From an uncultured Mycoplasmatota bacterium (GTDB lineage: Bacteria > Bacillota_I > Bacilli_A > RF39 > UBA660): a stretch of 63,008 nt of DNA. Positions within the stretch are counted from its first letter, which is position 1, and each line of letters starts with the position of its first letter. The notes under the pieces are model-generated. The model made no database searches, was not told where the DNA came from, and was given only the letters and a program-made list of their open reading frames with translations. Location: assembly GCA_947576095.1 (NCBI GenBank), contig CANPPW010000003.1, positions 1-63,008 on the forward strand, written 5' to 3'. Shown here in pieces: positions 29,811-63,008 of this stretch. A program made the translations under genes and the position numbers.

Positions 29811-29839
29811 ACCATAAAAACGCTTAAAATAATTACGAG

Positions 29840-39032: not shown

Positions 39033-39232
39033 TAAGCAGTACCATCAATCATAATTAATCTCCTCCTTTTAGGAGAAGGGATCCTTAAAGGATGTGATTT
39101 GTAATCTTTATTAAAACATTTATGTTTGATAGATTTAACCTAATGTTTCTTTTTATATAGTGATTTATAGAATGGATACCTTCTAACTTTAAGATTGTCT
39201 TCTTTAACTATTTTTATCATCATCTTAAGATT

Positions 39233-39559
39233 TCAAATAACATCTTCATGATAGATATTTTGAAATTGTGATATTGCATATTTATTCTTAAAGTTCTTAA
39301 TAAATCCAATTTCTTTGTTGGAAGGTGAATTATTAGAAGGTTTATTTGTTAAACCGTGAACTAAAATAGAATTAATATCCTTTTCTTTTAATGTAACCGA
39401 TAATCTATATATTTGTGATTTATTATAAACAGTAAGAGAACCAATTTGAGAATAAGAGAAATCTTTTAATCCATTTAATTTTTCTTGAAAAAGTTTTAAT
39501 GCATATTCTTTATTATGTATATAAAAATATCTCTTTTCTGGTGGGATATTATATAACAT
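39233..39559 (-). mobile_element. Truncated ISNCY/IS1202-like transposase (N-terminal HTH part only)
   Basis: 108-aa ORF with ...SQIYRLSVTLKEKDINSILVHGLTNKPSNNSPSNKEIGFIKNFKNKY.... This resembles the H-G-n-x-G-r-k-P-x-N lead of that family. No DDE core follows, only stop-riddled sequence. Confidence 0.5.
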
Positions 39560-39681
39560 AAGTTTGGTAACATTTTAAAAATGGATTAACAAAAAATAAA
39601 AATTATTGCTAAATAATTAGTTTTGTTTTATAACAAACATTGTTTTTGAGGACTAATGTATCAAAATTAAGGAGGAAAATT

Positions 39682-41406: not shown

Positions 41407-41411
41407 TAATT

Positions 41412-48128: not shown

Positions 48129-50306
48129 ATGAAAAATAAAATAGATAAAATCATAGTTGCAATACTATCTATCTTACTATCCTTATATCCTATTTTAGGT
48201 GGTGGATATAGAACCTATAAATCTCATTTATTATTTTATATATCACTTGTTCTTATGATTTTACTTTTACTAAACCATTTCATACAGAAAAAGAAAATTA
48301 AAATCCATCTTGGTATAGTTCTTCTTTTTTTTCTTTGGATAATTTATTATACCCATGCTTTTTTGAATATACAAAAAACAACTATGAGAGAATTTATTTT
48401 ACTATTTATGAGTTTTCTTTTTTTTAGTATTCTTTTTTATAATAAAATGAATGAAAAAAATATGTATATATGGAAATACAGTATTCTATTTTCTGGAATA
48501 TTATCTATTTTGCTATCTACAATAGGTATTTTAAATTTAAAATGGTTTCCTTTTCCGATTAGATATACAGACTTTTATATTAGTAGTGTCAATAGACTTT
48601 ATGGAACCTTTGTTTACCCAAATGCTTATGGTTTATTTATGTTAGTGTGCTACTTTATAAGTTTAGAATTTATACGAAAAAATAAAAATAATATATTTGA
48701 AATTTTAGGATATCTATATTTACTTTATTTTGCAGTTACAATATCTAAAATAGGGTTTTTATTGTTTATTCTTTTCTACTTTATTTATCTTTATTTTTAT
48801 AAAAAAGAAAAATTATCCATCATAACACCCCATTTAATTTCTTTATGCATTCCTACTTTTATAGGTGTGGAGAGCTTTCGAAAACTGTCTTTTACAAGTA
48901 ATATTACATTATATATAATTACTATTTTACTACTCATATTGTTATATTTTACATTAAAAAAACTATGTGAAAAAAAATTAGGGATATTTATCATATTGAT
49001 AATTATTATTATGACTATGATCATTCCTATTCCTAAGACATTAAAAATAAAAAATAAAGGTACTCTAAAATATATTGTATTAACCGATTTCATGAATTTA
49101 AAGAAAAATCATACTTATAGATTAGAAATTCCTATGAAACAGAAAGGGATTTATCGAAATTCTAAAATTAGAATTACAAAAGTTGTAACGAAAGATAATG
49201 TAGCAAATTATTTACCTGTTGCTATATTAGATATAAAAGATGGAAAACAAAAAATTATATATGATCTTAAAACAGAAGAAGATTTTGCCTATTACTATAT
49301 TGAATTGTTGCATACAAGCTCTTATAATACTTATGAAATAGATCCTGTTGTTCTTATAGATCAAAAAAATAAAAAACAAAAAATGTATCCACTAGATTAT
49401 TACATTATGCCGTATGTATATGCCTTTCAAAAAGAACAAATGAAATATGATAAAGGTAGTGCTTTAGGAAGGGCTTCTATTTATAAAGATTGTTTACATC
49501 TTACGAAAAATCATATTTTATTTGGTTATGGATATGGTGCTTTTGAAGATGCCTTTTATAAATATCATTTAAAGGGGCAAACAATTGAAGAGCATAGTTT
49601 TCTTTTTAAATTATTATTAGAGGTAGGGATATTGGGACTTTTATTATATTCTCTATTGATCTTGGATCTTTTCTTAATTTCTCTTCGAATATACAAAAAT
49701 AAAAAAAATATATCTATCATTCTTTTATGTATGATTTTATTTTTAAGTAGTTGTATTGATTTTACATTTAGTTATTCTCAGTTATTTTTACTTTTTATAG
49801 TACTTTCAACTTACATTCATCATATGTATGATAAGCAACAGAAAGATAGAGTTCTTTTTATCGCAAGTGCAGGGGGACATTTAACAGAACTTTTACATTT
49901 GAAAAAACTATTTTCTAAATACCAAAGTGTTTTAGTAACAGAAAAAAATCATATTTCTGAAAACCTAAATGTACCAATTGAGGTTGAATATTTAAAATAT
50001 AGTTCTAGATATTATTTGATTCATTATATCTTAACAGTTCCCTTCAATATAATAAAAAGTCTTTATTTGTTTATAAAATACAATCCAGATGTAATTTATA
50101 CAACAGGAGCTCATACATCCGTTTGTATGTGCTACTTAGGGTTTTTATTTGGAAGAAAAATTATTTTTATAGAAGTATATGATCGAGTTACACCTACATT
50201 ATCAGGAAAATTGGTATATAAAATCGCAACAAAATTTATTGTACAAAGAAAAGAACTTTGTAAATACTATAAAAAAGCAATTTATATGGAAGGAATTTAT
50301 GAATGA
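48129..50306 (+). CDS. Fusion protein: O-antigen ligase/polymerase-like (Wzy_C) multi-TM domain + Alg14-like domain
   Basis: 725 aa. The N-terminal ~560 aa are polytopic with the YGTFVYPNAYGLF region. The C-terminal ~155 aa (VLFIASAGGHLTELLHL...IIFIEVYDRVTPTLSGKLVYKIATKFIVQ) resemble PssD/Cps14F/Alg14. Confidence 0.7.
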   Translation: MKNKIDKIIVAILSILLSLYPILGGGYRTYKSHLLFYISLVLMILLLLNHFIQKKKIKIHLGIVLLFFLWIIYYTHAFLNIQKTTMREFILLFMSFLFFSILFYNKMNEKNMYIWKYSILFSGILSILLSTIGILNLKWFPFPIRYTDFYISSVNRLYGTFVYPNAYGLFMLVCYFISLEFIRKNKNNIFEILGYLYLLYFAVTISKIGFLLFILFYFIYLYFYKKEKLSIITPHLISLCIPTFIGVESFRKLSFTSNITLYIITILLLILLYFTLKKLCEKKLGIFIILIIIIMTMIIPIPKTLKIKNKGTLKYIVLTDFMNLKKNHTYRLEIPMKQKGIYRNSKIRITKVVTKDNVANYLPVAILDIKDGKQKIIYDLKTEEDFAYYYIELLHTSSYNTYEIDPVVLIDQKNKKQKMYPLDYYIMPYVYAFQKEQMKYDKGSALGRASIYKDCLHLTKNHILFGYGYGAFEDAFYKYHLKGQTIEEHSFLFKLLLEVGILGLLLYSLLILDLFLISLRIYKNKKNISIILLCMILFLSSCIDFTFSYSQLFLLFIVLSTYIHHMYDKQQKDRVLFIASAGGHLTELLHLKKLFSKYQSVLVTEKNHISENLNVPIEVEYLKYSSRYYLIHYILTVPFNIIKSLYLFIKYNPDVIYTTGAHTSVCMCYLGFLFGRKIIFIEVYDRVTPTLSGKLVYKIATKFIVQRKELCKYYKKAIYMEGIYE

Positions 50307-50785
50307 GAATATTTGTTACATTAGGAACCCAAAAACAACCATTTACAAGATTGTTATCTTATTTAGAAGAAATGGAGATAGATGAATCTATTATTGTTCA
50401 GAATGGAAATACTATATTTGAAAGTAAAAAAATGAAGTTTTTAGGATTTATTACAAGAGAAGAGATGCAAAAAGAAATAAGAAAAGCGGATTTAATAATT
50501 ACACATGGCGGGGGAGGTAGTATTTTTGAAGCATTACAATTACAAAAGAAGGTGATTTGTGTTCCCAGAAGAAAAAGATATGGAGAACATATCAATGATC
50601 ATCAAATGGAGATTGTTCTTTATTTATCTCAAAAAAAATATATTATTCTCTGTGAAGAAAAGGAATCTTTAAAAGCGGCTATTTCTAATATAAATAATAT
50701 TAAATTAAAAAAATATGAACCTCATATAGAAACATTTGTAGATCATATGGAAAAAATAGTAGATGATTTATTAAAAATATCATAA
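50303..50785 (+). CDS. Alg13-like glycosyltransferase catalytic subunit (Glyco_tran_28_C; PssE/Cps14G-like)
   Basis: 160 aa. MRIFVTLGTQ..PF.RL and ITHGGGGSIFEAL motifs. ATGA overlap with the Alg14-like fusion. Confidence 0.8.
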   Translation: MRIFVTLGTQKQPFTRLLSYLEEMEIDESIIVQNGNTIFESKKMKFLGFITREEMQKEIRKADLIITHGGGGSIFEALQLQKKVICVPRRKRYGEHINDHQMEIVLYLSQKKYIILCEEKESLKAAISNINNIKLKKYEPHIETFVDHMEKIVDDLLKIS

Positions 50786-50804
50786 TAGAAAGTTAGGTGA
50801 AAGT

Positions 50805-51677
50805 ATGAAAATGAGTATGGACTGGAAAGACTATCAGATTATAGATGCTGGCAATGGAGAAAAATTAGAAATTTGGAATAATATTCTTTTAAGAAGACCA
50901 GATCCACAAGCTCTATGGCCAACAAAACAAAATGAAAAATGGATGCATGTGGATGGTCATTATATAAGAAGTGAAAAAGGTGGAGGCCACTGGAATTTTT
51001 TTAAAAAAATCCCAGATCACTGGGTTGTTACATATAAAGATTTAACCTTTAAAGTTTCTCCAACAAACTTTAAACATACGGGTTTATTTCCAGAGCAAGC
51101 AGTAAACTGGGATTTTATGATAGAAAAAATTCAAAATGCAAATCGTCCTATTCGAGTTTTAAATTTATTTGCTTATACAGGAGGGGCTACTATGGCTTGT
51201 GCAAAAGGTGGAGCAGTAGAAGTTGTCCATGTAGATGCAGCAAAAGGTATGGTAGAATGGGCAAAGGAAAATATGTATTTATCACATCTTGAGGATCATA
51301 AAATTCGATTTATTGTGGATGATTGTGTGAAATTTGTTCAAAGAGAAAAAAGAAGAGGAAGAACTTATGATGCTATTATTATGGATCCACCTAGTTATGG
51401 CAGGGGACCTTCTGGGGAAGTTTGGAAATTTGAGCAAAATATATTTTATTTAATTGAAAATTGTATGCAAATATTAAGTGACAATCCCTTATTTTTTACA
51501 ATTAATTCTTATACAACGGGTATTTCTAGTATAGTACTTGAAAACATTTTAAAAAAGACAATGTTACCTTTATATCCTAATGGAAAAATAGCATCTGGTG
51601 AAGTGGGTCTTCCAATTCAAAAAGATCATTTGGTTTTACCTTGTGGAATTTATGGTAGATGGGAAAGTTATGATTAA
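50805..51677 (+). CDS. Class I SAM-dependent methyltransferase (RlmI/RlmK-like catalytic domain)
   Basis: 290 aa. LNLFAYTGGATMA and IIMDPPSYG motifs. Confidence 0.75.
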   Translation: MKMSMDWKDYQIIDAGNGEKLEIWNNILLRRPDPQALWPTKQNEKWMHVDGHYIRSEKGGGHWNFFKKIPDHWVVTYKDLTFKVSPTNFKHTGLFPEQAVNWDFMIEKIQNANRPIRVLNLFAYTGGATMACAKGGAVEVVHVDAAKGMVEWAKENMYLSHLEDHKIRFIVDDCVKFVQREKRRGRTYDAIIMDPPSYGRGPSGEVWKFEQNIFYLIENCMQILSDNPLFFTINSYTTGISSIVLENILKKTMLPLYPNGKIASGEVGLPIQKDHLVLPCGIYGRWESYD

Positions 51678-52326
51678 TATTTTATATGAAGATAATCATT
51701 TGTTAGTTGTAAAAAAACCTATTAATATTCCTGTTCAAAAAGACTCATCTTTAGATATTGATTTCTTAACTCTTTTAAAAGATTTTTTGAAAAATAAATA
51801 TAATAAGAAAGGAAATGCTTATTTAGCTCTGATTCATAGATTAGATCGTCCTGTAGGAGGTGTTATGGTATTTGCTAAAACATCCAAAGCAGCAAGTCGT
51901 CTTTCTTTGCAAATTAAAAATCACATGATAAAAAAGAAATATTATGCTGTGATAGAAGGTTGTCCTCATAAAAAAGAAGGTGTTTTTTTAGATTTATTAG
52001 AAAAAGATTGTCAAAAAAATAAAGTATATGTAAGTGAAAATGGGAAAAAAGCTGAATTATTTTATAAAGTTCTAGAAAAAAAAGAAGGTCTCACTTTAGT
52101 AGAGATTGATTTAAAAACAGGCAGAAGTCATCAAATTCGTGTTCAATTCTCTTCAAGAGGATTTCCTTTATATGGAGATCAGAAATATAATCAGCATGCT
52201 AAAAAAAAGCAGCAAATTGCTTTATTCGCTAAAGAATTATCTTTTTATCATCCTATTACAAACGAATTTCTTACTTTTTCACTAGATCTTCCTATGCAGT
52301 ATCCATATACATTATTTAGAAATTAA
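51670..52326 (+). CDS. RluA-family pseudouridine synthase
   Basis: The ATG at 51670 overlaps the upstream stop. Contains ILYEDNHLLVVKKP, HRLDRPVGGVMVFAKT and GRSHQIRVQ motifs. The track's 51598 start is an upstream extension. Confidence 0.88.
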   Translation: MINILYEDNHLLVVKKPINIPVQKDSSLDIDFLTLLKDFLKNKYNKKGNAYLALIHRLDRPVGGVMVFAKTSKAASRLSLQIKNHMIKKKYYAVIEGCPHKKEGVFLDLLEKDCQKNKVYVSENGKKAELFYKVLEKKEGLTLVEIDLKTGRSHQIRVQFSSRGFPLYGDQKYNQHAKKKQQIALFAKELSFYHPITNEFLTFSLDLPMQYPYTLFRN

Positions 52327-52512
52327 TATGTCATAGTAGTAACTATATAAGAAACCCTATTTTGATTATGAAATTGTTTATGCTGCTATTCTCCATTTAT
52401 AATCTTTTGTCAAAATCTTTACAAATAAAATTATTGATTTTATAGGAAAAGAAAAAAAACTTTTTTTTTTGGCTTTTTTAGGTTATACTATTATAATAAA
52501 GGGGAGAATAAA

Positions 52513-54093
52513 ATGATACTTAGAAAACCATATGCGATTTTGATTAAAAATTTTAGAAGAATTCATATTTTACTTAGTATTATGATCTTTTATCTATTAT
52601 ATAAAACATCTAGTATAAATACATTTCTTAGTAAATATATTTTAAATCCAAGTACTTTAGTAGATCCTTCTATTACAAATTCATTGAACCATATAACTAT
52701 TTATATTGTCCCCATTTTCATTATTTTAGGTTCTATTTTAATTTTTGTTTTACTAAGTGTTAAGAAAAAACCAATTACTTTCTATTTATTTAATATAGTC
52801 ACCTTTATTGCGAGTTTAGTGATTTATACATATGTAGGTTCTATTTTAACAACATTAGAAATCCGTTTGGTTGATATTAGAGATCTTAAACTTGCACAAG
52901 ATTTTATTAGAAGTTTACTTGTTATTCAAACTATAAGTGCCCTAATTACCATTATTAGAGCTACAGGATTTAATGTAAAGAAATTTGATTTCAGTAGAGA
53001 ATTAAAAGAATTAGAAATTGAAGACTCTGATAGAGAAGAATTTGAAGTAAATATAGAAATAGAAGAAGGAAAATTTAAAAGAAATTGGAATCGATTTAAA
53101 AGATATACAAGATATGTATTTTTAGAAAATAAATGGTTTTTATTTGTTTTTTCTCTTATTTTTACAAGTTGTATTATTTTATTTTTAATTTTAAATGTGA
53201 CTGTTTTTAATAAAGTTTATAAAAAAGGAGAATATGTAACTGCAAGTGACTTGATGTTTAAAGTAAATGAAATTTATATAACAAACTTAGATTATAAAGG
53301 AAGAGAAATCAGCAATCAATACTCTTATGTTGTTGCCAATATAAGTATTCGAAATATAATGCCAAAGAAGTTTTCACTAGAACCTTCTAAATTTTATTTA
53401 AAAATTGGAAATCATTTCTTTTATCCAAAAGAAGAATTTTCAAAATATTTATTTGATTTTGGAACAGTTTATAAAAAAACAGAGATAAAATCAGAATTTA
53501 AAGATTATAGTTTTATCTTTGAGATTCCAAAAGGATTTTCTAAGTCAAAAAAAATATTTACTTATTTAGATTCCAATGATAAAGTGTATAAACTTCCAAC
53601 AAAAATGAACAACATAGATAAAGTAAATGTAAATATAAATCAGAAATTAAATGACGTTGTCTCACTAGAGAAAACCCCTTTTTTGAGTTCTAAAATTCAC
53701 ATAAAAAATGTAAAAATACAAGATATGTTTCGGGCAAAATATTCTTTTTGTCTCGATCAAAAATGTATAGATTCTTATGAATATATTTTACCTGATTATA
53801 AGGATAACTATGATAAAGGAATTATAAAAATAGAGGGATCTTTAGAATTAGATTCTAAGGCCAATATGACAGATATCTATGATATTTATACTTTTATTAA
53901 AAGTTTTGGTCGACTAAAATATACTGTAGATGGTACTGAAAAGGAAATATATTTAAATTATAATCAAATAAAACCTAGCAAATTTAAAGATTCTGCGACT
54001 TATATAGAGGTACCAATTGAAGTGATAAATGCAGAAAAAATAACACTTATCCTTTACATTCGAGGAAATAGTTATCAATATTCTATTAAATGA
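52513..54093 (+). CDS. Polytopic membrane protein with large extracytoplasmic beta-rich domain (first gene of the Tad-like operon)
   Basis: 526 aa. About 4-5 TM helices in the first ~230 aa, then a soluble domain (DUF4352-like segment VVANISIRNIMPKKFSLEPSKFYL). A 4-nt overlap to the next ORF frame suggests an operon. Confidence 0.6.
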   Translation: MILRKPYAILIKNFRRIHILLSIMIFYLLYKTSSINTFLSKYILNPSTLVDPSITNSLNHITIYIVPIFIILGSILIFVLLSVKKKPITFYLFNIVTFIASLVIYTYVGSILTTLEIRLVDIRDLKLAQDFIRSLLVIQTISALITIIRATGFNVKKFDFSRELKELEIEDSDREEFEVNIEIEEGKFKRNWNRFKRYTRYVFLENKWFLFVFSLIFTSCIILFLILNVTVFNKVYKKGEYVTASDLMFKVNEIYITNLDYKGREISNQYSYVVANISIRNIMPKKFSLEPSKFYLKIGNHFFYPKEEFSKYLFDFGTVYKKTEIKSEFKDYSFIFEIPKGFSKSKKIFTYLDSNDKVYKLPTKMNNIDKVNVNINQKLNDVVSLEKTPFLSSKIHIKNVKIQDMFRAKYSFCLDQKCIDSYEYILPDYKDNYDKGIIKIEGSLELDSKANMTDIYDIYTFIKSFGRLKYTVDGTEKEIYLNYNQIKPSKFKDSATYIEVPIEVINAEKITLILYIRGNSYQYSIK

Positions 54094-54140
54094 GTTTGCT
54101 TTATTTACTTTTGTTTGGTAAAATGGAAAGGAGAATAGGA

Positions 54141-54782
54141 ATGAAAAAATATGGTAAATTACTTATACTTGTACTTTTTTTAGTACCTATTACTGTATTA
54201 GCAGAAGATTGTTCTCCAAAAGATAGAGTGAATCTATCTAAAATAGCCCAAAATGTTGCAGTAGCTAAGGTTTTTGATGAAAATACAGCTACATTTAAAC
54301 TTGTTTTTAGTAATGTAACTTCAGAAATATACTTATATGATGTAACAGGAAGAAATTATCATTATTCATCAAATGCTGATATTTCACTTAAAGGATACTA
54401 TCCAGGTAGTAAATATAAGTTTATATTTTATTCTAATGCTTATGGGTGTGAAGAGGAGGTTATATATACTAAATATATAACATTTCCGAATTATAATGCT
54501 CTTTATAAAGATGAAAGTTGTCGTGGATTAGAAGATTATAAAATATGTAAAAAATGGGCAAATGTAGATATATCATATGATGATTTTAAAAAAGAAACTC
54601 AAAAATTAAAAGAAAAAGAGGAAGAAAAAATAGAGCCTGTACAAAATATAAAGGGATATTTTGATTATATCATTGATTTTGTAATGAAATATGATTATAT
54701 TCTTTTACCAATTTTTATAGCAATATTTATCGGTCTTGAATATGTCATGTGGTATAAAAATAAAAAGGAACAATTTTTTTAG
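54141..54782 (+). CDS. Secreted, C-terminally anchored Cys-containing protein
   Basis: AAAGGAGA RBS before the ATG at 54141. Signal peptide MKKYGKLLILVLFLVPITVLA. C-terminal TM ILLPIFIAIFIGLEYVMW. Confidence 0.6.
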   Translation: MKKYGKLLILVLFLVPITVLAEDCSPKDRVNLSKIAQNVAVAKVFDENTATFKLVFSNVTSEIYLYDVTGRNYHYSSNADISLKGYYPGSKYKFIFYSNAYGCEEEVIYTKYITFPNYNALYKDESCRGLEDYKICKKWANVDISYDDFKKETQKLKEKEEEKIEPVQNIKGYFDYIIDFVMKYDYILLPIFIAIFIGLEYVMWYKNKKEQFF

Positions 54783-54791
54783 GAGGTCATT

Positions 54792-57344
54792 ATGAATAAA
54801 AAATGGATTTTAATTTTTGTATTTGCTATTATGTTGATTCTTCCCCAAAATGTTTTGGCAGATGACCCAGAATATAATGGTACAGGTTCAGGTGCAACCC
54901 AGGAGGGTGGGGGAATTTTAAATTTGAGCCAATATTGGCAAAGTGCAAGCAATAGTGAAACTTATACTATAAAGGTTACTTTAGTATATTATGATCAGGG
55001 CACAGAAGAGATGACTAGAAATCCTCACAATACGCATCCTTTTTATATTACTAATAATTTAAGTAAAGTTAAATCTTTGATTAATGATACTAATTTGCCT
55101 ATATATGATGCTAATAATACTATAATGAGTTTTTCAACTATGTCTTCTGGAAAAACCAGAGACACTTGCGGAATTGTTAATTGTACATTAAATATTGGTA
55201 AGTTAAGAAAGTTTTTTGAGAACTCTGATAATTATACAAACGGATTTAAAATTGTAGATAAACTAGGATTAGATGTAACAAAATTAGATGGTGAGTTTAC
55301 CGAACAATGGGGAACCTACTCAGGATATCGTCTTTTATTAGAGCCTTGTTTTATAGGGGCTAGACTAAGTGACTCTGGCACTCAGGAGAATAAATTATTA
55401 AGTATTAGAGCATGGGCTGGAAGGTTTAAGCAGGGATGGCTTAACGGCTTTGGTGATTGGAGTTCAAAAGCTAATTATATGTATATAGAAGTTGCTGATA
55501 TGTTTTTCAACAAAAATGGTCCAATTCCAGGAAATCTTAGCGACAACGTCGTTATCCAATTACTTGCAGAGCAAGGTCCACCGCGTAATGGAATTGGAAT
55601 GAATTTAGTAAAATTTTCCCCAATATATATATGTTATAAGGATAATATAGAATCAATAGGAGATTCACTCAAATGTAAAGCTAATGGTACACATACCAAT
55701 ACAGCATATACACAGACAATTTCTTCTAGTGTATGTAGCTCAGGAGAAAAACCTGAAGATAGTGGGTTTAATAAATTTGGAAAAATAATAAAAAAATTTG
55801 GTAATAAAAAAGGAAAAAGATGTATAATAGCATGCCAAGAAACTGTGAATGTAAGTTTGCCAGGAAGTTTACAAGGAGCAATTGATGTCTCAAAAGGGGA
55901 TTCTTATTTTGAATGGCCTACTATATTCTCAAATACACTTTATACAGCTACTATTTCAGGAAAACGTGATTGTACAGTTACAGTGGAATCTGGTATAACA
56001 GACGAAAATAAAACAAAATGTTTCAATTATTTAAAAAATACAGCTAAGGATAATACAAAGGGATTATATAGTGATAAAGATTTTGATAACAAGTTAAAGT
56101 TATCCTACAATGACCCAACATATAAGTTACAAAATGTTGAGCTAAAACAAACATATAGTCCAATAAATGTTATATATTCAAAAGATCCAAAAAAGAAAGA
56201 TATGAATGGTCTAAAAATTACAGTAACAAGAAATACTAGCCTTAGTTTGCCAGACAAAGGTGTATATAAGTATGTAAATAAATTAACAGGAAAATTCGGA
56301 GTTATGCCATTTTTGAGTTCAAGTTTTAACACATTACAAAATAGTGTTTTAGCAGTTGCAAAATCTTCATTAAAACCAGATAACTATGATATGAAATTAA
56401 CAGGAAAAATAGGTGGGTTTCAGCAGTCAATTGGAGATTATAAATGTCATTATAAACTAACAGAAAGTACAGATACAGATTGTGGACAATGTCCACCAGG
56501 AACACTTAATGAAGGAACACCATTAAATAAACCATGTGCAGTAGATCCAGATAAATTAATGAGTGAAAAAACCTCGTATGCTTCTGTTTGTACAGCACTT
56601 AAAGAAACTATTTGTAATTTAGATAAAACACAATGGGAAAATCATGGATACGATGAGAGTCGGGTATGCTGTGAAGCACCTTATGCGAGCACGGATATTA
56701 CAGATTGTATAAAAAATGGTAAATCTAAAGAGGAATGTTCTATTCAAGCAGGTTGTATTAATGGAGGGAGTACACCTCCTCCAGACCCCATAGTGTGTCC
56801 TCCTGGTACAGAAAAATGTGGACTGGATATTACAGAATGTGTAAAGAATAATATGAAATTAGGAATGACTGAGAATGAGGCTAAAAATCGTTGTATAACC
56901 AATACATGTAACGGGCCACAAAGTGGAGGAATTATTATATATAGAACTATAAATTTAAACAATCCTTTTCCAAGTAAGCTAGGAAATGCAGGCAATTCAA
57001 GCGTTTTTTGGTCAAATGGTATTAATGTAGGAAGAAGACCTGGAAATAATTGGAATAATAAACGTTTAGTTGAAAATAAAATTTTAAATAATAGAGGAGT
57101 CAAAGGAGAAGCTGTATATACCAAAACACCACTTTATACAATCACTTTAGATGCAACAAAAATAAGAAAGATTCGTGAGTATAATAAAACGCACAAATAT
57201 TCAGATTTTACATTAAGATGTGCAACAAAAGGTGGAGGGAAATGTATTAGTGATTTTTTACGTTCACCATCAAGTGGAAATGCACTAACAGGTGGAACTT
57301 GCCGAAGATCAAATGATTTCGATGCTTGTTACAATAGGGGGTGA
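54792..57344 (+). CDS. Large secreted Cys-rich protein (possible filament-associated adhesin)
   Basis: 850 aa. Signal peptide ...LPQNVLA-DD. Two CPPGT motifs and two DIT(D/E)C(I/V)KN motifs in the C-terminal third. No known domain recognised. Confidence 0.65.
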   Translation: MNKKWILIFVFAIMLILPQNVLADDPEYNGTGSGATQEGGGILNLSQYWQSASNSETYTIKVTLVYYDQGTEEMTRNPHNTHPFYITNNLSKVKSLINDTNLPIYDANNTIMSFSTMSSGKTRDTCGIVNCTLNIGKLRKFFENSDNYTNGFKIVDKLGLDVTKLDGEFTEQWGTYSGYRLLLEPCFIGARLSDSGTQENKLLSIRAWAGRFKQGWLNGFGDWSSKANYMYIEVADMFFNKNGPIPGNLSDNVVIQLLAEQGPPRNGIGMNLVKFSPIYICYKDNIESIGDSLKCKANGTHTNTAYTQTISSSVCSSGEKPEDSGFNKFGKIIKKFGNKKGKRCIIACQETVNVSLPGSLQGAIDVSKGDSYFEWPTIFSNTLYTATISGKRDCTVTVESGITDENKTKCFNYLKNTAKDNTKGLYSDKDFDNKLKLSYNDPTYKLQNVELKQTYSPINVIYSKDPKKKDMNGLKITVTRNTSLSLPDKGVYKYVNKLTGKFGVMPFLSSSFNTLQNSVLAVAKSSLKPDNYDMKLTGKIGGFQQSIGDYKCHYKLTESTDTDCGQCPPGTLNEGTPLNKPCAVDPDKLMSEKTSYASVCTALKETICNLDKTQWENHGYDESRVCCEAPYASTDITDCIKNGKSKEECSIQAGCINGGSTPPPDPIVCPPGTEKCGLDITECVKNNMKLGMTENEAKNRCITNTCNGPQSGGIIIYRTINLNNPFPSKLGNAGNSSVFWSNGINVGRRPGNNWNNKRLVENKILNNRGVKGEAVYTKTPLYTITLDATKIRKIREYNKTHKYSDFTLRCATKGGGKCISDFLRSPSSGNALTGGTCRRSNDFDACYNRG

Positions 57345-57353
57345 AAATACGAT

Positions 57354-57755
57354 ATGAAAGATTCATTTTGGGGTATATTTATCATTAGTGTAGGGATTAT
57401 CACAATGGTTATTATTTTCTTTTTTCAAGAACTAACAACCACAGATGAACAGATATATACTCTCTTAAGAGAAACAACAGAATCTGCTATGTATGATGCG
57501 ATAGACTATGGAGTACTCACACAATCAAAAACAATTAAAATCAACCGTGAAAAATTTGTAGAAAATTTTGTAAGGAGATTTGCTCAAAGTGCTACTTTGC
57601 AAAATACATATCAAATTGATATTTATGATGTAAGTGAAACACCCCCTAAAGTCAGTTTAAAAGTTTCTACTAAAAAAAGTACCACTGCAACAAATGAAGT
57701 TATAACATTTGATCTTATTAATAAATTAGATGCCATTATGGAAACTCCATATTAA
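57354..57755 (+). CDS. Small N-terminally anchored protein (pseudopilin-like candidate)
   Basis: 133 aa. Starts MKDSFWG, followed by a ~20-residue hydrophobic helix. Confidence 0.55.
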   Translation: MKDSFWGIFIISVGIITMVIIFFFQELTTTDEQIYTLLRETTESAMYDAIDYGVLTQSKTIKINREKFVENFVRRFAQSATLQNTYQIDIYDVSETPPKVSLKVSTKKSTTATNEVITFDLINKLDAIMETPY

Positions 57756-57776
57756 AAGAAAGAAAGGGAGAAATTT

Positions 57777-58634
57777 ATGAACAATTTTATGATATCTTTA
57801 AAAAGATTATTTCGAAACAAAAATACAGTGACCATTCTTGGTGTGATTGCTGTAATAGCTATTTTATTTATTGGCTATAGAATTCAAGTAGGTAGAGCAG
57901 TAAAACCAGTACCTAATGTTCCTGTTGCTGCCAGTACCATTCAACCAAGAACAAAAATAACTGCAGATATGATTAGCTATGTTGACATGGCTAGTGTTGC
58001 AGTACCTTCTAATGTATATACAAATTCAAATTCTATTATTGGAAAATATTCAAATGTAAATACAATCATACCATCTGGAAGTATGTTCTATCATGAAGCA
58101 TTAATTAGTGAACAACAACTACCTGATTCTGCTTTTGTAGATTTAAAAAAAGATGAAATACCTTATAACTTTCCTGTAAATATTGATTCTACATATGGAA
58201 ACTCTATTTTCCCAGGAAATTATATTGATATTTATATGAAGGCAGAAAATGAGCAAGGAACTTTAATGGTTGGACGTTTCCTTGAAAATGTCAAAGTACT
58301 AGCTGTAAAGGATGCTCAAGGTCAACACGTATTTGAAAACACAACAGAAGCAAGAACCCCAGCTTATCTTATCTTCGGATTAAAATCTAATTTAAATATT
58401 TTACTTAGAAAAGCAAGCTATATGCGTGATTATTCTGTAGAACTATTCCCAGTACCACATGGTACAAAAGTATCTGTAAAAGAAGGGGAAACAGAAGTAA
58501 GTTCACAAACATTACAATCATTTATTGAAGCAAATACTGTTCCAAATGATGAATTAGAAGATAAAAAAGATGAGGATCAGAAAAGCGATACACCAAATAC
58601 AGGTACCCCAACACCAAGCCCAGCTGTAAGATAA
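57777..58634 (+). CDS. CpaB/RcpC-like Flp pilus assembly protein (SAF domain)
   Basis: 285 aa. N-terminal TM, then VPVAASTIQPRTKITADMI...IGKYS...IPSGSMF (SAF-like). PGNYIDIYM...ENVKVLAV resembles the CpaB C-domain. Confidence 0.7.
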   Translation: MNNFMISLKRLFRNKNTVTILGVIAVIAILFIGYRIQVGRAVKPVPNVPVAASTIQPRTKITADMISYVDMASVAVPSNVYTNSNSIIGKYSNVNTIIPSGSMFYHEALISEQQLPDSAFVDLKKDEIPYNFPVNIDSTYGNSIFPGNYIDIYMKAENEQGTLMVGRFLENVKVLAVKDAQGQHVFENTTEARTPAYLIFGLKSNLNILLRKASYMRDYSVELFPVPHGTKVSVKEGETEVSSQTLQSFIEANTVPNDELEDKKDEDQKSDTPNTGTPTPSPAVR

Positions 58635-58647
58635 GGAAACAATCATT

Positions 58648-60075
58648 ATGAATGATGGAATGTTTTCACAAATTGATTTTGGACCTTTACGTGAATATTT
58701 ATTAAATGATGATATAACAGATATTTCTTATAGTAATAGTGGTCAAATATGGCTTAAAACATTATCAAAAGGAATCTTTAGGGTCGATAATGAAGCTATT
58801 AATAATACTTTTATGGAAAAACTAGCTTTTCAATGTTCTAACGTAATGGGAAAATCATTTAATATGGCTCAACCATTTCTAGATGCAGAAGGAGCAGAAC
58901 TACGCCTTAACTTTGTACATGATTCCATTGCTAGAAATGGAATCGCTGTTGTAATTCGTAAAACACCAGCAAAAATTAGACTTCAAAAAGAAAATTTGCT
59001 CCGTGATAAATATGTAGATTTAGATATACACGATTTTTTGATTTATTGTGTAAGAGGACACTGCAATATTATTGTTTGTGGAGAAACAGGTTCAGGAAAA
59101 ACAGAATTTGTTAAATACCTAGCAGCTCATACGAAAGAAGACGAAAAACTGATTACCATTGAAGATACATTGGAATTACACCTAGATAGAATTTTTCCAC
59201 ATCGTGATATTGTTACAATGAAAACCAATAATATTGCTTCATATTCAGATGTACTTGTTACATGTATGAGACAAAACCCAAAATGGATCCTTTTATCAGA
59301 GGTACGTAGTGCAGAGGCAGTGATGGCAGTCAGAAACTCTATTTCTTCAGGGCATTATATTTTATCTACTATCCATGCTGATAAAGCAGCATCTATTCCA
59401 AATCGTATGTATAGTTTGCTTGAAACCAATCAAGATATCGAACAATTTCTAAAGTCCATTTATCGTTATATTCAAATTGGTGTATTTATAAGAGGGTATC
59501 AAGATAAACAATCAAAAAAATTTGTTCGTGAAATTGCAGAAGTTACAGAATTCTATGTAACAGAAGATAATGAAGCTAGATATAACACAATTTATAAAAA
59601 AACAACAACTGGAAATGTATATCGAAAGAAACCATCAAAATATTTACTTGATTATTTAGATGGACAAGGTGTTGTTTTACCAAATACATTATTAAATGAA
59701 ATGGCTTTAAAGGAGACAGAAGAAGAACCTTCTACGGAAGGGGAAACTGCTATAATCAAAAATATATCTACAGAAAAGCCTGTACAACAAGGGACTGCAA
59801 TAGGAAATTTAAATAACGGTTTTATAAATAGACCAGTGAATCAAAGTGGCATCAATCAAGTTGTAAATTCAGACCCTAATAAAGTAGCATCTTTAAATCA
59901 AAATGTAAATCCAGTTGTTCAGCAAAGGATAAAGGTGCAACAAGGTATAAATCCAAGTCTTTATAATCAAAATGAAGGGTCTTTTCATCCCGCTTTTAGT
60001 AGCACACAAAACTTTAATAATCATCCTATAGGAAATGTGCAAATGCAGCAAAACTCTGTTCAATCAACTCAATAA
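58648..60075 (+). CDS. CpaF/TadA/VirB11-class secretion ATPase with Q/N-rich C-terminal tail
   Basis: 475 aa. Contains DITDISYSN..QIWL, Walker A CGETGSGKTEF, ITIEDTLEL, Walker B/His box ILLSEVRSAEA...SGHYILSTIHA. The last ~125 aa are low complexity. Confidence 0.85.
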   Translation: MNDGMFSQIDFGPLREYLLNDDITDISYSNSGQIWLKTLSKGIFRVDNEAINNTFMEKLAFQCSNVMGKSFNMAQPFLDAEGAELRLNFVHDSIARNGIAVVIRKTPAKIRLQKENLLRDKYVDLDIHDFLIYCVRGHCNIIVCGETGSGKTEFVKYLAAHTKEDEKLITIEDTLELHLDRIFPHRDIVTMKTNNIASYSDVLVTCMRQNPKWILLSEVRSAEAVMAVRNSISSGHYILSTIHADKAASIPNRMYSLLETNQDIEQFLKSIYRYIQIGVFIRGYQDKQSKKFVREIAEVTEFYVTEDNEARYNTIYKKTTTGNVYRKKPSKYLLDYLDGQGVVLPNTLLNEMALKETEEEPSTEGETAIIKNISTEKPVQQGTAIGNLNNGFINRPVNQSGINQVVNSDPNKVASLNQNVNPVVQQRIKVQQGINPSLYNQNEGSFHPAFSSTQNFNNHPIGNVQMQQNSVQSTQ

Positions 60076-60104
60076 TCCTGTAAATAATAGTAAGGAGGTA
60101 TTAT

Positions 60105-61007
60105 ATGGATATCATTATATTATTACTAGTTGCTTTTGTTATTATATTTGTATTTGTTTATAGAAATAGTAGTGGTGAAAATGTTTATAAATATATTGTA
60201 ACTAAAAGTTCATTTATTTATGAAAGATATGCTCCTTTTTCTTATAAAGAAATCAGAAAAAAGGTAAAGGATCTAGGACAAGATTATACCAAAAGACAAT
60301 ATACTATTCAAATTGCGGTCTTTGCGATTGCATCCCTTGTCATTTCCTATCTGTACTTTTATAATCTGATTATTTCAATCATCTATATGGCACTAGCTAT
60401 TACAGTAATTCCTTATCTTACTTATTTGAGATCAAAGAGAATTTATAGTGAATTTATTTTTGAACAAATACAAGTTTATACAACCAATACCATTATGGAA
60501 TTTTCTACAACACAATCTTTTATTAAAGCCTTAGAAGGTGTTTATGAATCAGGTGTACTAGAAGATCCTGTTCGCACAGATGTAAAAGTTATGATTGATT
60601 TGGCTTATGAAAATGGTACAATTGATGAGTCTATTACTTATATGAATAATAAATATGATTATTATATGGTCAAAAATATGCATCAATTATTCTATCAAAT
60701 TACAAATGAGGGATCTAAAGATGCTGGAGAATCTTTGGAAAATATGTCACAGGATATTGATATGTTAGTAGAAGGTGTATATCGAGATAGAATCGATAGA
60801 GCAGCTTTCCACAAAAAATTTCTTCAATTTGGTGTTGTTTTATATTTAATGGTTATGTTAGTACAATTTCTATTAGGTGTAGAAACGTATATCAATATGC
60901 TTTCACAGCCTATTGTCCAGATTTTACTTCATGGGGTCATTATTATTAATACATATTTCCTTCTCAATGGGGAAAAATATTATAACGAGAATGTAGGTGC
61001 CGAATAA
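60105..61007 (+). CDS. TadB-like (T2SS F-domain) inner-membrane platform protein
   Basis: 300 aa. N-terminal TM, central helical cytoplasmic region, C-terminal TM pair. Sits directly after the ATPase, as in Tad loci. Confidence 0.6.
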   Translation: MDIIILLLVAFVIIFVFVYRNSSGENVYKYIVTKSSFIYERYAPFSYKEIRKKVKDLGQDYTKRQYTIQIAVFAIASLVISYLYFYNLIISIIYMALAITVIPYLTYLRSKRIYSEFIFEQIQVYTTNTIMEFSTTQSFIKALEGVYESGVLEDPVRTDVKVMIDLAYENGTIDESITYMNNKYDYYMVKNMHQLFYQITNEGSKDAGESLENMSQDIDMLVEGVYRDRIDRAAFHKKFLQFGVVLYLMVMLVQFLLGVETYINMLSQPIVQILLHGVIIINTYFLLNGEKYYNENVGAE

Positions 61008-61792
61008 TGGAATTTGTTTTAGTTACAGCAATTATGCTTTTTGTTTTACATTATAACCAAAATATTGATGCCAAAAAGTTTTTAGATGACATTGAACCTT
61101 ATTTTCACTTTTTAATGGAAGATGATTACAAGTTTTTACTAAGTCTTAGATATGGGGAGGCAAAAGACTCCACCAATGAATTTAATAAAAGAGTTACAAA
61201 TGGCCTTTTAGCAACTGCTATTTTTCTTGGATTATTTCTATTTTCAAAAGTAAATTTTATTAATGTTTTACTTGCATTTGTTTTAGGATTTTTAGTGTTT
61301 AAGTATCCTTATACGCAACTTCAAAGCTATTATAAAAAAAATCTACATACGATTAACCAAATGTTGCCATACTATTTAAAAAGCTTAGAAATCCTTGTGC
61401 AACACTATACAGTACCAGTTGCGATTAGAAGATCTATTGCAAGTGCCCCACCTATATTTGTTCCAGGACTAAAAAAATTAGTAGATAAAATCGAGGCAGG
61501 AGATTCTTCTGTAGACCCTTATATGGAGTTCGCAAGAGACTATCCGGTTCGAGATTCTATGCGAATGATGCGTCTTTTATATCGTTTGAGTTTAGGATCA
61601 CAAGAAAATAAACAAGAACAACTTATGATGTTTGCAAAAACAGTTTCTAGTTTACAAAATAAAGCAAGAGAACAAAAATATAAAGAACGTCTAGAGGTTA
61701 TGGAAAATAAAACCATGATGATGTTATGTACAACAGGAGCTGGAATTTTAGTCTTACTGCTTTATTCAATGATGTCAATGATGAATCTATAA
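61007..61792 (+). CDS. TadC-like (T2SS F-domain) inner-membrane platform protein
   Basis: 261 aa with the same topology. Its start shares nucleotide 61007 with the last base of the preceding stop codon. Confidence 0.6.
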   Translation: MEFVLVTAIMLFVLHYNQNIDAKKFLDDIEPYFHFLMEDDYKFLLSLRYGEAKDSTNEFNKRVTNGLLATAIFLGLFLFSKVNFINVLLAFVLGFLVFKYPYTQLQSYYKKNLHTINQMLPYYLKSLEILVQHYTVPVAIRRSIASAPPIFVPGLKKLVDKIEAGDSSVDPYMEFARDYPVRDSMRMMRLLYRLSLGSQENKQEQLMMFAKTVSSLQNKAREQKYKERLEVMENKTMMMLCTTGAGILVLLLYSMMSMMNL

Positions 61793-61806
61793 AGGAGATG
61801 TAATCA

Positions 61807-62265
61807 ATGAAGCAAAGTATCGGAATGACCTATACACTTAATTTTATTATTATCTTTATTTTGATTGTTTTTGCTTTTATCATGGGGATTATGTCATATA
61901 TGAAAGCTTTTCGTATTAATTCTCTTGTATCAAATGCCATTGAAAATCACGAGGGATATAATTATTTGGCAAAAGAACAAATGGATCGGGCACTAAATTC
62001 TATTGGATATAGAAAAGATGCAAGTGGAAACAGTGGGTGTAAGAAAAATCGTAATGGGGGTACCCTTATAAAGGCGTATGGGGAAAAGTCTTCCCAAAAT
62101 CATAGATATTGTATTTACGAATTTCCAAAAGATAAAAATGGATATATTAAATATGGCATTGTAACATATCTTTATATTGATGTTCCTGTAATTAATCAGC
62201 TGATTGCAATACCTGTTTATACTGAAACAGAAAAGATCTATGAATTTAATGTGAATAGGAGTTGA
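61807..62265 (+). CDS. TadE/pseudopilin-like protein, paralog 1
   Basis: 152 aa. Starts MKQSIG, then a hydrophobic helix. Shares SY.KA(F/Y), IEN.E, RYCI and Y.Y(I/L)(D/E).PVI..LI..PVY.ET with 62272-62718. Confidence 0.6.
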   Translation: MKQSIGMTYTLNFIIIFILIVFAFIMGIMSYMKAFRINSLVSNAIENHEGYNYLAKEQMDRALNSIGYRKDASGNSGCKKNRNGGTLIKAYGEKSSQNHRYCIYEFPKDKNGYIKYGIVTYLYIDVPVINQLIAIPVYTETEKIYEFNVNRS

Positions 62266-62271
62266 TAAAAA

Positions 62272-62718
62272 ATGAAAGAAGCGGTTGGAAATACATTCAT
62301 TCTTTCTATTATGATAACATTTGTTGTTATTTTTATCATTCTTTTTGCTGGATCTACAAGTTATACAAAAGCATATAAAGTGAAAAATAGAATTATAGAT
62401 ATCATTGAAAATAATGAAGACGTAAAAGATAATAAAGGTATTAGTGATAGTACTTTTACGGAAATCAATCAATTTTTATCAGAAACAGGATATAAAATAG
62501 GAAATCCTAATAAAAGTACATGCAAAAGTCATGGTGGAAATCTAGTATCCAATCATAATAATCGGTATAGATACTGTATAGAAAGATTTGAGACAGATCG
62601 TGGACCTTATTATGGAGTGACAGCCTATATGTATTTAGAACTCCCTGTAATTTCATCTTTAATAGAAGTTCCTGTTTATGGAGAGACAAAAATATTAGGA
62701 CAATTAAAGGCAGATTAA
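62272..62718 (+). CDS. TadE/pseudopilin-like protein, paralog 2
   Basis: 148 aa. Starts MKEAVG, then a hydrophobic helix. Collinear with the previous gene, including two conserved Cys. Confidence 0.6.
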   Translation: MKEAVGNTFILSIMITFVVIFIILFAGSTSYTKAYKVKNRIIDIIENNEDVKDNKGISDSTFTEINQFLSETGYKIGNPNKSTCKSHGGNLVSNHNNRYRYCIERFETDRGPYYGVTAYMYLELPVISSLIEVPVYGETKILGQLKAD

Positions 62719-62796
62719 ATATATTAATATTTTAGAAAATTGATATTTAAAAGAAAATAAAAAGAACGAGAACATATATTTTATTAGGTGATATAA

Positions 62797-62970
62797 ATGC
62801 TAAAATATAAAATATGTGTTTTTTTAGTACTTTTATTGTGTCTAAGTTCTTTTTATTATGTAGAAGGGAAGGAGCGAGCGTTACCTTTGTTTGGAAAAGT
62901 GCTCTATATTGACCCTGGTCACCCGAGTTTGTATAAACCCAATGTAATAAGTATGAGTTGTAGCAAATGA
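62797..62970 (+). pseudogene. Truncated amidase_3 (CwlD-like) gene fragment
   Basis: A signal peptide is followed by GKVLYIDPGH. The expected GG.D.G does not follow: the sequence becomes unrelated after about 62922 and stops at 62970. Confidence 0.4.
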
Positions 62971-63008
62971 TAATCTATATAATTTAATAATAATTACACT
63001 AAGATACT

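Follow-up and report, generated by a model that had tools for sequence, protein, structure and literature searches.

Miller et al. (2022) described an uncharacterised "secretion-related" operon of Roseburia, Ruminococcus, and Eubacterium, predicted from gene context alone, the common parts of which are CpaF, a PilC/GspF-like protein, a DUF5411 protein, and an internalin-like protein (PMC9523054). No experimental work on such DUF5411-associated CpaF operons was found in the literature searched. Here, we analyze a ten-gene operon (g01 to g10 in order; Table 1) at positions 52513-62718 of a 63,008-nucleotide (nt) stretch of contig CANPPW010000003.1 from an uncultured Mycoplasmatota bacterium; this whole stretch is referred to as the window. 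Judged by its sequence, the operon belongs to the DUF5411-associated CpaF type and represents a short form within a branch of the type IV filament superfamily that is widespread but experimentally untouched.

A comparable gene run occurs in the conjugation operon of plasmid pLS20, which comprises an adhesin (gene 34), gene 36 (126 amino acids [aa], with an N-terminal transmembrane [TM] helix), a "putative VirB11" (gene 37), and genes 38 (268 aa), 39 (243 aa), 40 (120 aa), and 41 (47 aa); only genes 34 and 37 have been named, and genes 36 and 38 to 41 are labelled "unknown" (PMC8557374). According to the same paper, Gram-positive elements form no conjugative pili (PMC8557374). Plasmid pAW63 carries the same run as CDS 26-19 (PMC1196294).

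Canonical Tad/Flp systems (Cpa of Caulobacter, Tad of Aggregatibacter and Bifidobacterium) share with the window operon a single ATPase of the CpaF/FlaI/VirB11 clade, a putative TadB and TadC pair, a CpaB/RcpC-like protein, and minor-pilin-like proteins with N-terminal helices. The window operon differs from them in having no Flp pilin of the G/XXXXEY type, no TadV, and no TadZ; its ATPase is nearer to VirB11-like proteins of Firmicutes, its platform proteins are too diverged to match the Pfam family T2SSF, and DUF5411, g01, g02, and the C-terminal domain of g03 have no canonical Tad counterpart. A functional analogy is offered by the thin pilus of IncI1 (R64) plasmids, a type IVb pilus which stands beside a type IV secretion system (T4SS) and is used in liquid mating; it is a type IV filament machine adjoining and serving a conjugative T4SS, as may be the case for the extended cluster found in relatives of the window. 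It differs in being Gram negative and in having a secretin (PilQ), a motor of the PilB/PilC type, and a shufflon (PilV), and no homology beyond the superfamily level is known. The Tad-like cluster of TANB77, an uncultured clade of gut Firmicutes with reduced genomes, comprises CpaB, a CpaF-type ATPase, TadB/TadC-like protein(s), and several proteins of 140 to 240 aa with one N-terminal TM helix and without sequence homologs (PMC11680825). By its description, it is distinguished from the window operon by TadZ and CpaE homologs and a fused TadC-TadB protein, and no link to DUF5411 or a T4SS has been reported for it. The tad operon of Bulleidia, a canonical Gram-positive one with tadV, Flp-like pilins, and TadZ (PMC12786226), is clearly of a different type.

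Conservation and distribution of the ten genes

The ten co-directional open reading frames (ORFs) reported in a first-pass annotation of the window were confirmed by an ORF check as ten intact ORFs on the plus strand. A homology survey, in which one genome per species was used, gave at least 540 species with a relative of the ATPase g06, and the best 80 loci were compared by tblastn of the ten proteins. Gene content and order turned out to be the same in nearly all of the 80 species-level genomes, i.e., the ten genes travel together, to an extent well in excess of chance, and independent gene calls on related contigs agreed with the ten-gene block. The identity across the 80 loci was highest for g06 (~67 to 89%), g07 (62 to 82%), and g08 (49 to 78%), followed by g05 (39 to 72%) and g04 (42 to 64%), while g01, g02, g03, g09, and g10 were only 25 to 56% identical. 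The difference between the core (60 to 89%) and the surface parts (30 to 55%) argues that the cytoplasmic and membrane core is strongly constrained and that the exposed parts evolve fast.

The databases hold more than 7400 homologs of g06, the best 120 of which are 67 to 100% identical to it over the core, and at least 8000 homologs of g07, none with a Pfam domain and the few source-named ones being hypothetical proteins; more than 7000 of the former and at least 8000 of the latter are metagenomic. The best 80 relatives came mostly from uncultured Bacilli, Tenericutes, Mollicutes, or Firmicutes of guts, and the named g06 homologs were from metagenome-assembled genomes of uncultured "Bacilli" or "Lactobacillales." The relatives include a closed 1.26-Mb chromosome (L076; related loci are denoted by L and a number) and "Candidatus Fimihabitans," filed by NCBI under Mycoplasmatota incertae sedis; the group presumably equals order RF39 of GTDB. 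The flanking genes vary between species and are housekeeping genes, e.g., scpA/scpB; the ten-gene block behaves as a chromosomal module.

A motor ATPase and a CpaB-like protein

The ATPase of the first-pass annotation, assigned there to the CpaF/TadA class, was borne out as a secretion ATPase. The g06 protein matched T2SSE (PF00437) with an E value of 2e-27, its Walker A (residues 145-152), Asp box (169-173), Walker B (214-220), and His box (241-244) motifs are intact, and its best matches in the PDB were CpaF (2e-18), FlaI (2e-17), and VirB11 (6e-16), with CpaF barely ahead. The scores against the NCBIfam models of VirB11, TadA, FlaI, and ComGA were all far under the cutoffs, the best being that for VirB11, and g06 was closer to "CpaF/VirB11" proteins of Firmicute plasmids (108 to 174 bits) than to canonical CpaF (81 to 103 bits). 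On this sequence evidence, g06 is placed in the CpaF/FlaI/VirB11 clade, without clear membership in a subfamily. Its core is 67 to 95% identical across the relatives. The ~350-aa core is followed by a low-complexity tail of ~125 aa rich in Q, N, and P (residues ~350-475; 59700-60075), whose length is highly variable, the orthologs totalling 356 to 511 aa.

The g05 protein scored below the cutoff for RcpC (E = 9e-6, 26 bits versus 28.8) and was also sub-cutoff for TIGR03177 (E = 2e-10). RcpC was matched in 30 of 33 g05 orthologs and SAF in 16 of the 33, one relative's ortholog carries a precomputed RcpC match, and g05 aligned with the SAF/RcpC-like proteins of the plasmid clusters of Priestia and pHT73 at 99.9% by hhalign; a PDB profile search with g05 gave nothing. 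Judged by these matches, g05 counts as a CpaB/RcpC protein, as had been proposed.

Putative platform proteins linked to TadB and TadC through plasmid intermediates

For g07 and g08, annotated at first as two TadB/TadC-like platform proteins, all direct profile and fold searches failed, and the assignment stands on transitive links. Neither protein matched T2SSF in Pfam, NCBIfam, or the PDB sequence profiles, T2SSF was found in 0 of 34 orthologs scanned singly, and the remote members of the g07 family from an exhaustive search had no family match either. The g07 family is compact, the exhaustive representative search having returned 297 matches with few remote full-length members. Its topology is a TM helix, two to three further TM helices, a helical soluble domain of ~130 aa, and two TM helices. 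A paralogy of g07 and g08 was considered and rejected, as the hhalign likeness stops after the first helix.

A route to intermediates was offered by the plasmid ATPases closest to g06, which lie on Firmicute plasmids and are ~30% identical to it. The ~310-aa protein of the Priestia cluster (here "B") bears the NCBI name T2SS F family and matched PF00482 with an E value of 3e-5. Single-sequence hhalign templates proved too weak, the TadB-versus-TadC control reaching only 8%, and we therefore built six-sequence profiles, the canonical TadB profile consisting of six proteobacterial and actinobacterial sequences; with profiles, the same positive control reached 98.9%. The g07 protein then aligned with B of Priestia/pHT73 at 97.6% (E = 3e-12) and B with canonical TadB at 97.9% (96.5% for the merged B profile). 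Similarly, g08 aligned with the plasmid "C" protein of Priestia/pHT73 at 97.2% and with the pLS20 gene 39 family at 96.3%, and C aligned with canonical TadC at 93.3% (92.8% for the merged C profile). The intermediates pair correctly, B with B and C with C. We conclude from this transitive homology that g07 and g08 are probably very diverged TadB- and TadC-like proteins.

Pilin-like proteins of the window and its relatives

Three small proteins with an N-terminal hydrophobic helix had been noted in the place of pseudopilins, and their leaders and a structural model of one of them are pilin-like. The g04 protein is a member of DUF5411 (PF17424, E = 1e-49) and begins with MKDSFWG followed by a hydrophobic helix; the leader M-K/R-E-S-F/M-W-G/A/S is kept in 76 orthologs. 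By hhalign, g04 is related to the DUF5411 proteins of Priestia/pHT73 (94%) and to the pLS20 gene 36 family (89%), and a PDB profile search with it gave nothing. The g09 and g10 proteins are paralogs (hhalign 100%, E = 3e-49). The former contains two Cys residues, and its leader, M-K/R-E/Q-S/G-I/V-G plus ~22 hydrophobic residues, is kept in 63 orthologs; the latter has the leader MKEAVG, of the same type as the MKEAAG of the small pilins of relatives. An AlphaFold2 model of g10 built with 67 homologs (pLDDT 89) comprises a helix at residues 2-47, another at 59-72, and a sheet of three strands, and two Cys residues, C84 and C102, are conserved; the architecture of this model is pilin-like. Over the 67 g10 homologs, Pfam returned no pilin family, only TM-helix noise such as DUF1512, and weak hhalign links led to DUF4320 (76%) and the pLS20 gene 40 family (66%).

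Most relatives with sequence between g08 and g09 carry small genes there, one to three tandem copies encoding 55 to 98 aa. Their products begin with MKEAAGEAN(L/M)T and consist of a hydrophobic helix and a short tail, often Cys rich; they had no Pfam match and no hhalign likeness to an Ancylobacter Flp. It is plausible from these sequences that the small gene encodes the major pilin, which would not be of the Flp G/XXXXEY type. One type of leader, M-K/R-E-S/A-x-G/A/S plus ~22 hydrophobic residues, is thus common to four families of the extended operon (g04, g09, g10, and the small pilins). The first-pass annotation had described an operon without a pilin, which is true of the window; in most relatives a small pilin gene is present. 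The first-pass reading was thus correct in its core, and the "missing parts" of the window are a lineage-specific feature and not a property of the family.

Several observations were made at the same site in relatives. The sequence N-x-T is invariant right after the leader of the small pilins (MKEAAGEAN[LM]T). Between g08 and the small pilin gene or g09, L004 (12970-15450) and L008 (13069-15423) carry a gene for a membrane protein of the YfhO family (E = 1e-106 to 5e-134); the small pilins may conceivably be glycosylated. A 798-aa ORF occupies the same position in L044 (12489-14885). In L079 (13417-16559), a CBM_X2/LysM-like protein and a sortase-domain protein are encoded between the small pilin and g09, an insertion whose domains hint at wall anchoring of some component.

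T4SS genes in relatives and the short form of the window's clade

A gene of ~330 aa follows g10 in 56 of 59 related loci, and the product of the next gene, of ~115 aa, weakly resembles T4SS_pilin (VirB2-like). Further downstream, among the 44 related loci with enough sequence for such counts, 41 encode a TrbL/VirB6-like protein, 35 a PrgI/VirB3-like protein, and 32 a VirB4-like protein (AAA_10, TraG P-loop); precomputed Pfam matches on independent gene calls agree with these T4SS genes. Given the small pilin and the downstream T4SS genes of most relatives, the usual form would be a cluster of at least 22 genes in which a Tad-like machine is fused to a Gram-positive T4SS. The ~330-aa gene resembles TadZ by eye, but this identity gained no support, as Pfam, a PDB profile, and hhalign gave no link to ParA or TadZ; it matched no family.

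The window's clade is the exception among the relatives: in the window and in L081, L002, L005, L009, L098, and L099, the operon has a short form in which g08 abuts g09 and the last gene is g10. In this clade, g10 is followed by an amidase gene (in L098 after one extra gene) and, where the sequence extends, by genes for an Abi_2 protein, an HtrA-like protease, and a deacetylase. A search of the 63-kb window revealed neither the ~330-aa gene nor any T4SS gene, and T4SS genes were also not found in the 4.5 to 9 kb downstream in the window's clade. At least six assemblies besides the window have all ten genes uninterrupted although their g10 proteins are only ~47 to 56% identical; the short form is therefore old and has been maintained. 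One of these assemblies, the ENA scaffold L081, is 99.2 to 99.6% identical to window positions 50063-62922; the pseudogenes suggested by apparent splits of its g01, g03, g04, g07, and g08 were dismissed, the splits being runs of N with adjacent small deletions that arose from scaffolding, i.e., assembly artefacts.

It could be argued that the short form is a decaying, nonfunctional remnant of the larger Tad-like and T4SS cluster, as the locus in this clade has lost the small pilin gene, the ~330-aa gene, and all the T4SS genes of the relatives. We give this explanation hardly any credence. None of the ten ORFs is interrupted in the window or in L002, L005, L009, L098, and L099, in spite of a 45 to 65% divergence of the surface parts, and the breaks in L081 are scaffold gaps and not mutations.

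Relation to plasmid-borne modules

The clusters of the Priestia koreensis plasmid NZ_CP061869 and of B. thuringiensis plasmid pHT73 encode, in order, a large surface protein, DUF5411, an SAF/RcpC-like protein, a ParA-like ATPase, a CpaF-like ATPase, proteins of ~310 and ~290 aa, and, further downstream, a DUF4320 protein. These DUF5411 plasmid clusters have in common with the window operon the surface protein, DUF5411, the SAF/RcpC-like protein, the ATPase, the TadB-like and TadC-like proteins, and a small N-anchored protein, and the corresponding hhalign values were 96% for the C-terminal domain of g03, 94% for g04, 99.9% for g05, 97.6% for g07, 97.2% for g08, and 76% for g10, the ATPases aligning with 174 bits. 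They differ in having, between the SAF gene and that of the motor, a gene for a ParA-like (TadZ-like) ATPase with no counterpart in the window, and in an SLH protein and a polytopic first gene of 166 to 172 aa, in place of which the window has g01/g02 and two paralogous pilin-like genes of 150 aa. The first gene of the Priestia/pHT73 clusters was examined as a prepilin peptidase, suggested by eye, and was rejected (no Pfam match and no hhalign link to an Ancylobacter peptidase); a relationship of g01 to it was ruled out as well, there being no link. Within a few kilobases upstream of the NZ_CP061869 cluster (L086:1587-5712) lie genes for a replication-relaxation family (relaxase-like) protein and a 944-aa T4SS coupling protein, and directly before the cluster is a gene for a 493-aa protein with a receiver-like N terminus and, by eye, a P-loop-like segment.

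The pLS20/pAW63 order (adhesin, ~125-aa N-anchored protein, ATPase, membrane proteins of ~270 and ~245 aa, ~120-aa N-anchored protein, and ~47-aa protein) also resembles that of the window, and pLS20-like orders recur on plasmids of Paraclostridium, B. velezensis, E. faecium, Listeria, Peribacillus, and Terribacillus. By hhalign, g04 was linked to gene 36 at 89%, g08 to gene 39 at 96%, plasmid B to gene 38 at 90%, and DUF4320 to gene 40 at 97%, and the ATPase g06 aligned with gene 37 with 119 to 163 bits; g07 was not directly linked to gene 38 (17%), and the link of g10 to gene 40 (66%) was weak. Like pLS20, the relatives of the window have T4SS genes directly downstream. The window differs in having no T4SS, relaxase, or coupling protein gene near the operon, and pLS20 differs in lacking a CpaB-like gene. 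Whether the window operon matches an already described type gene for gene had been left open in the first-pass annotation; it does so in part, its genes matching those of the pLS20- and DUF5411-type plasmid clusters, although these are annotated as hypothetical. On sequence grounds, the operon of the gut lineage, the plasmid-borne DUF5411 clusters, and the module of the pLS20 type seem to be versions of a single Tad-like family that in most cases is linked to T4SS genes.

These links give weight to a rival explanation, according to which the ten genes are an accessory "VirB11 module" of a Gram-positive conjugation-type T4SS that energises or gates the channel or builds a contact pilus, the other T4SS genes of the window's clade lying elsewhere in the genome. 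The downstream genes of the relatives (56/59, 41/44, 35/44, and 32/44 loci for the ~330-aa, TrbL-like, PrgI-like, and VirB4-like genes) speak for it, as do the same gene order inside the conjugation regions of pLS20, pAW63, and plasmids of Listeria, Enterococcus, Peribacillus, and Terribacillus (PMC8557374; PMC1196294), the relaxase-like and coupling protein genes adjoining the Priestia cluster, and the VirB11 model as the best NCBIfam score of g06. We nevertheless regard it as rather unlikely, if a serious contender, for no T4SS gene is present in the window or in the 4.5 to 9 kb downstream in its clade, the short form has stayed intact over a deep divergence without T4SS genes nearby, and the TadB/TadC-like platform and pilin-like proteins are parts of type IV filaments and not of known T4SS channels. 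It also overlaps with the explanation preferred here, in which the proposed ancestral role is that of a contact pilus for a T4SS.

Membrane and surface proteins encoded by g01 to g03

The g01 protein has predicted TM segments (by hydropathy) at residues 65-83, 88-106, 130-148, and 209-227 and a weak, sub-cutoff match to the Ig-like DUF4352 (E = 8e-5). It is present in 69 of the 80 loci at ~30 to 38% identity and has no counterpart in the Priestia plasmid cluster. The g02 protein, with TM segments at residues 24-42 and 204-222, had no family match in Pfam or NCBIfam; it is encoded in 68 of the 80 loci, always behind g01, and the 4-nt overlap of the two genes suggests that their translation may be coupled.

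The g03 protein has a signal-like helix (residues 5-23), 30 Cys residues, and no Pfam match. Its orthologs range from 551 to 1459 aa, with a highly variable N-terminal part and a conserved C-terminal ~130 aa, and the gene is absent or moved in ~15 of the 80 loci. The C-terminal motif iYRxIxLxNPFP..GxNW..IRxYN recurs at the C terminus of the large proteins whose genes precede DUF5411 on the Priestia/pHT73 plasmids (hhalign 95 to 96%), and in plasmid versions of the cluster the position of g03 is taken by adhesins (thioester, isopeptide, MucBP, and SLH/Ig domains). These features make g03 a candidate adhesin or cargo of the machine.

Were g03 a cargo, the machine might be a piston in the manner of a type II secretion system, with a pseudopilus secreting g03 (and perhaps other proteins) across the wall, and not a surface pilus. 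This would agree with the large size and secreted nature of g03, its gene being always just upstream when present, with the C-terminal domain common to distant DUF5411 clusters, and with the lack of a small major pilin in the window, as expected for a short pseudopilus. We consider a piston improbable, however, as ~15 related loci in which g03 is missing or moved keep the machine, g03 has a Sec-type signal-like helix of its own, and the tandem small pilins of most relatives are typical of a real filament.

Proposed mechanism

On balance, the operon probably specifies a member of the type IV filament superfamily, a machine that spans the envelope and represents a Firmicute-specific "DUF5411" branch of the Tad/VirB11 clade. 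From the genes present and their conservation, together with their homologies and a pilin-like architecture, we infer that a filament could be formed as follows. The hexameric ATPase g06 would dock on a membrane platform of one TadB-like (g07) and one TadC-like (g08) protein, and ATP-driven movement would lift the pilin-like g09, g10, and g04 out of the membrane, so that they would stack into a short filament passing through a g05 CpaB/RcpC-like collar and the cell wall. The filament may present or release g03 by way of the conserved C-terminal domain of the latter, and g01 and g02 would be lineage-specific membrane accessories. The purpose is likely contact with or adhesion to other cells, host surfaces, or particles. 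In the relatives, the operon also has a gene for a small, presumably major, pilin and continues into the genes of a Gram-positive T4SS, and its ancestral job was therefore probably to establish contact for this T4SS, as the thin pilus of R64 does; the window's clade has only the ten-gene front half at this locus.

A number of observations weigh against this reading. The g10 model had no significant match to a solved pilin or PDB fold by Foldseek, and the AlphaFold2 model of g07, of mediocre quality (pLDDT 68), had none either; g07 alone aligned with canonical TadB at only 4%. The residue before the hydrophobic helix of the pilin-like proteins can be Ala, Ser, or Asn in place of Gly, and g04, g09, and g10 have neither Glu5 nor the "EY" motif of Flp, so that leader cleavage is putative. 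As the first-pass annotation had stated, the window contains no Flp pilin, A24 peptidase, or TadZ: regex and tblastn searches revealed no pilin ORF of 50 to 100 aa in it, only the N termini of g09 and g10 being matched; no ParA-like TadZ/CpaE was found in it; and Peptidase_A24 was matched neither in the window nor in the called genes within ~10 kb in four related contigs. Major pilin and TadZ genes were likewise not found within ~10 kb in the window's clade. The tight linkage to T4SS genes in relatives means that the module could serve secretion or DNA transfer and not adhesion, and the organisms are uncultured.

The first-pass annotation had also reported a comK homolog in the window and on that account raised a role in DNA uptake. 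This gained no support, as ComK was unmatched in the three unassigned ORFs scanned (38139-38558 and 16467-16931, both on the minus strand, and 27606-28064), which had no Pfam match at all; the remaining ORFs of the window read as housekeeping genes, none being recognizably ComK, and comG, comE, and comF were not recognizable either. A competence pseudopilus has precedents in that Tad-type pili are needed for transformation in some bacteria, such as Micrococcus luteus, and that T4SS-linked DNA uptake exists in the ComB system of Helicobacter. Liberibacter is another bacterium in which Tad-type pili are needed for transformation (PMC8513845). For the window operon a competence pseudopilus is very unlikely, since g06 reached only 78 bits against a cutoff of 300 with the ComGA model and the pilin-like proteins have no KGFTLxE motif of the ComGC type.

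Organization of the locus

The junctions from g01 to g10 measure, in order, -4, +9, +9, +21, +13, +29, -1, +14, and +6 nt. The range of -4 to +47 nt given earlier is thus upheld up to +29; the +47 gap, between g01 and g02, is obtained when the internal Met at 54141 is taken as the start of g02. Inside the ten-gene block, the plus strand has no terminator-like site. The sole sizeable intergenic gap at the operon (52327-52512) contains a promoter-like site; such sites are not enriched in the window relative to shuffles, and this match is not statistically meaningful alone.

TABLE 1 The ten genes of the operon and the promoter-like site preceding them
Feature	Position	Strand	Description
Promoter-like site	52469..52497	+	TTGGCT-17-TATAAT, 16 nt upstream of g01; consensus match only
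g01	52513..54093	+	526-aa polytopic membrane protein with large extracytoplasmic C-terminal part
g02	54090..54782	+	230-aa bitopic protein; N-terminal signal/anchor helix and C-terminal TM helix
g03	54792..57344	+	850-aa secreted Cys-rich protein
g04	57354..57755	+	133-aa DUF5411 protein with pilin-like N terminus
g05	57777..58634	+	285-aa CpaB/RcpC-like protein; N-terminal TM helix, SAF-like and RcpC-like domains
g06	58648..60075	+	Hexameric secretion-type ATPase of the CpaF/FlaI/VirB11 clade
g07	60105..61007	+	300-aa TadB-like platform protein, remote homology only
g08	61007..61792	+	261-aa TadC-like platform protein, remote homology only
g09	61807..62265	+	152-aa pilin-like protein, paralog of g10
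g10	62272..62718	+	148-aa pilin-like protein

Other features of the window

The window has a G+C content of ~28%, with a switch in the sign of the GC skew near 10 kb, and Rfam and tRNA scans of it were empty. The gene after g10 (62797-63008) encodes an Amidase_3 (CwlD-like) protein. Identity with L081 extends to position 62922, which falls within the conserved DPGH(GG) motif; the remaining 86 bases of the window are unrelated and create a premature stop at 62970. They represent a chimera at the contig end or else the border of a strain-specific insertion.

Just upstream of the operon neighborhood, at 48129-50785, an unusual split/fused glycosyltransferase pair is encoded. Its first member (725 aa) joins a polytopic domain like Wzy_C/O-antigen ligase to an Alg14-like one, and its second, Glyco_tran_28_C (Alg13-like), is the product of a gene of its own. 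A 1475-aa surface protein (22746-27173), which is anchored in the membrane by its C terminus and contains the carbohydrate-binding domains NPCBM/NEW2 and F5/8 type C, is, by its domains, a second candidate adhesin or glycan binder, unrelated to the operon. The region from 27.6 to 30 kb holds small ORFs only, among them 27606-28064, one of the unassigned ORFs scanned with Pfam. A 59-aa ORF at 29694-29873, ~200 nt upstream of the full uvrB gene (30066-32045), repeats part of the UvrB N terminus and looks like a duplicated uvrB fragment. An islet at 38139-42302 consists of the unassigned minus-strand ORFs 38139-38558 and 39233-39559, followed by genes for a 588-aa ATPase of the AAA_5 family and a 296-aa protein of DUF7192, and may, from its gene content, be a mobile or defence-type insertion.

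Implications

The lineage to which the window belongs is a common uncultured group of small-genome bacteria of animal and human guts, with no cultured member among the matches, and its biology is inferred from genomes alone. The conservation of the motor and platform over at least 80 species (65 to 89% identity) makes the machine likely to be central to attachment to, or exchange with, partners or the host. The connection to T4SS genes is a more informative surprise than the absent parts of the window, and the short form represents a natural experiment in which the filament half stands apart from the T4SS half.

A broader proposal, which we put forward tentatively and regard as possible but doubtful, is that the DUF5411/CpaF module is an unrecognised type-IV-filament contact pilus of Gram-positive T4SSs (those of the pLS20 and pAW63 families and of the clusters in small-genome gut Bacilli) which has become, in the gut lineage, a fixed chromosomal contact organelle. 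If true, this would be at odds with the textbook statement that pili are absent from Gram-positive conjugation systems. The organelle of the gut lineage would then belong to a reduced-genome, probably partner-dependent bacterium, and the window's clade would show that the pilus half can persist alone. The link to genes 36 to 40 of pLS20 leads to a cultivable model, Bacillus subtilis, in which the unnamed conjugation genes may build a Tad-like filament.

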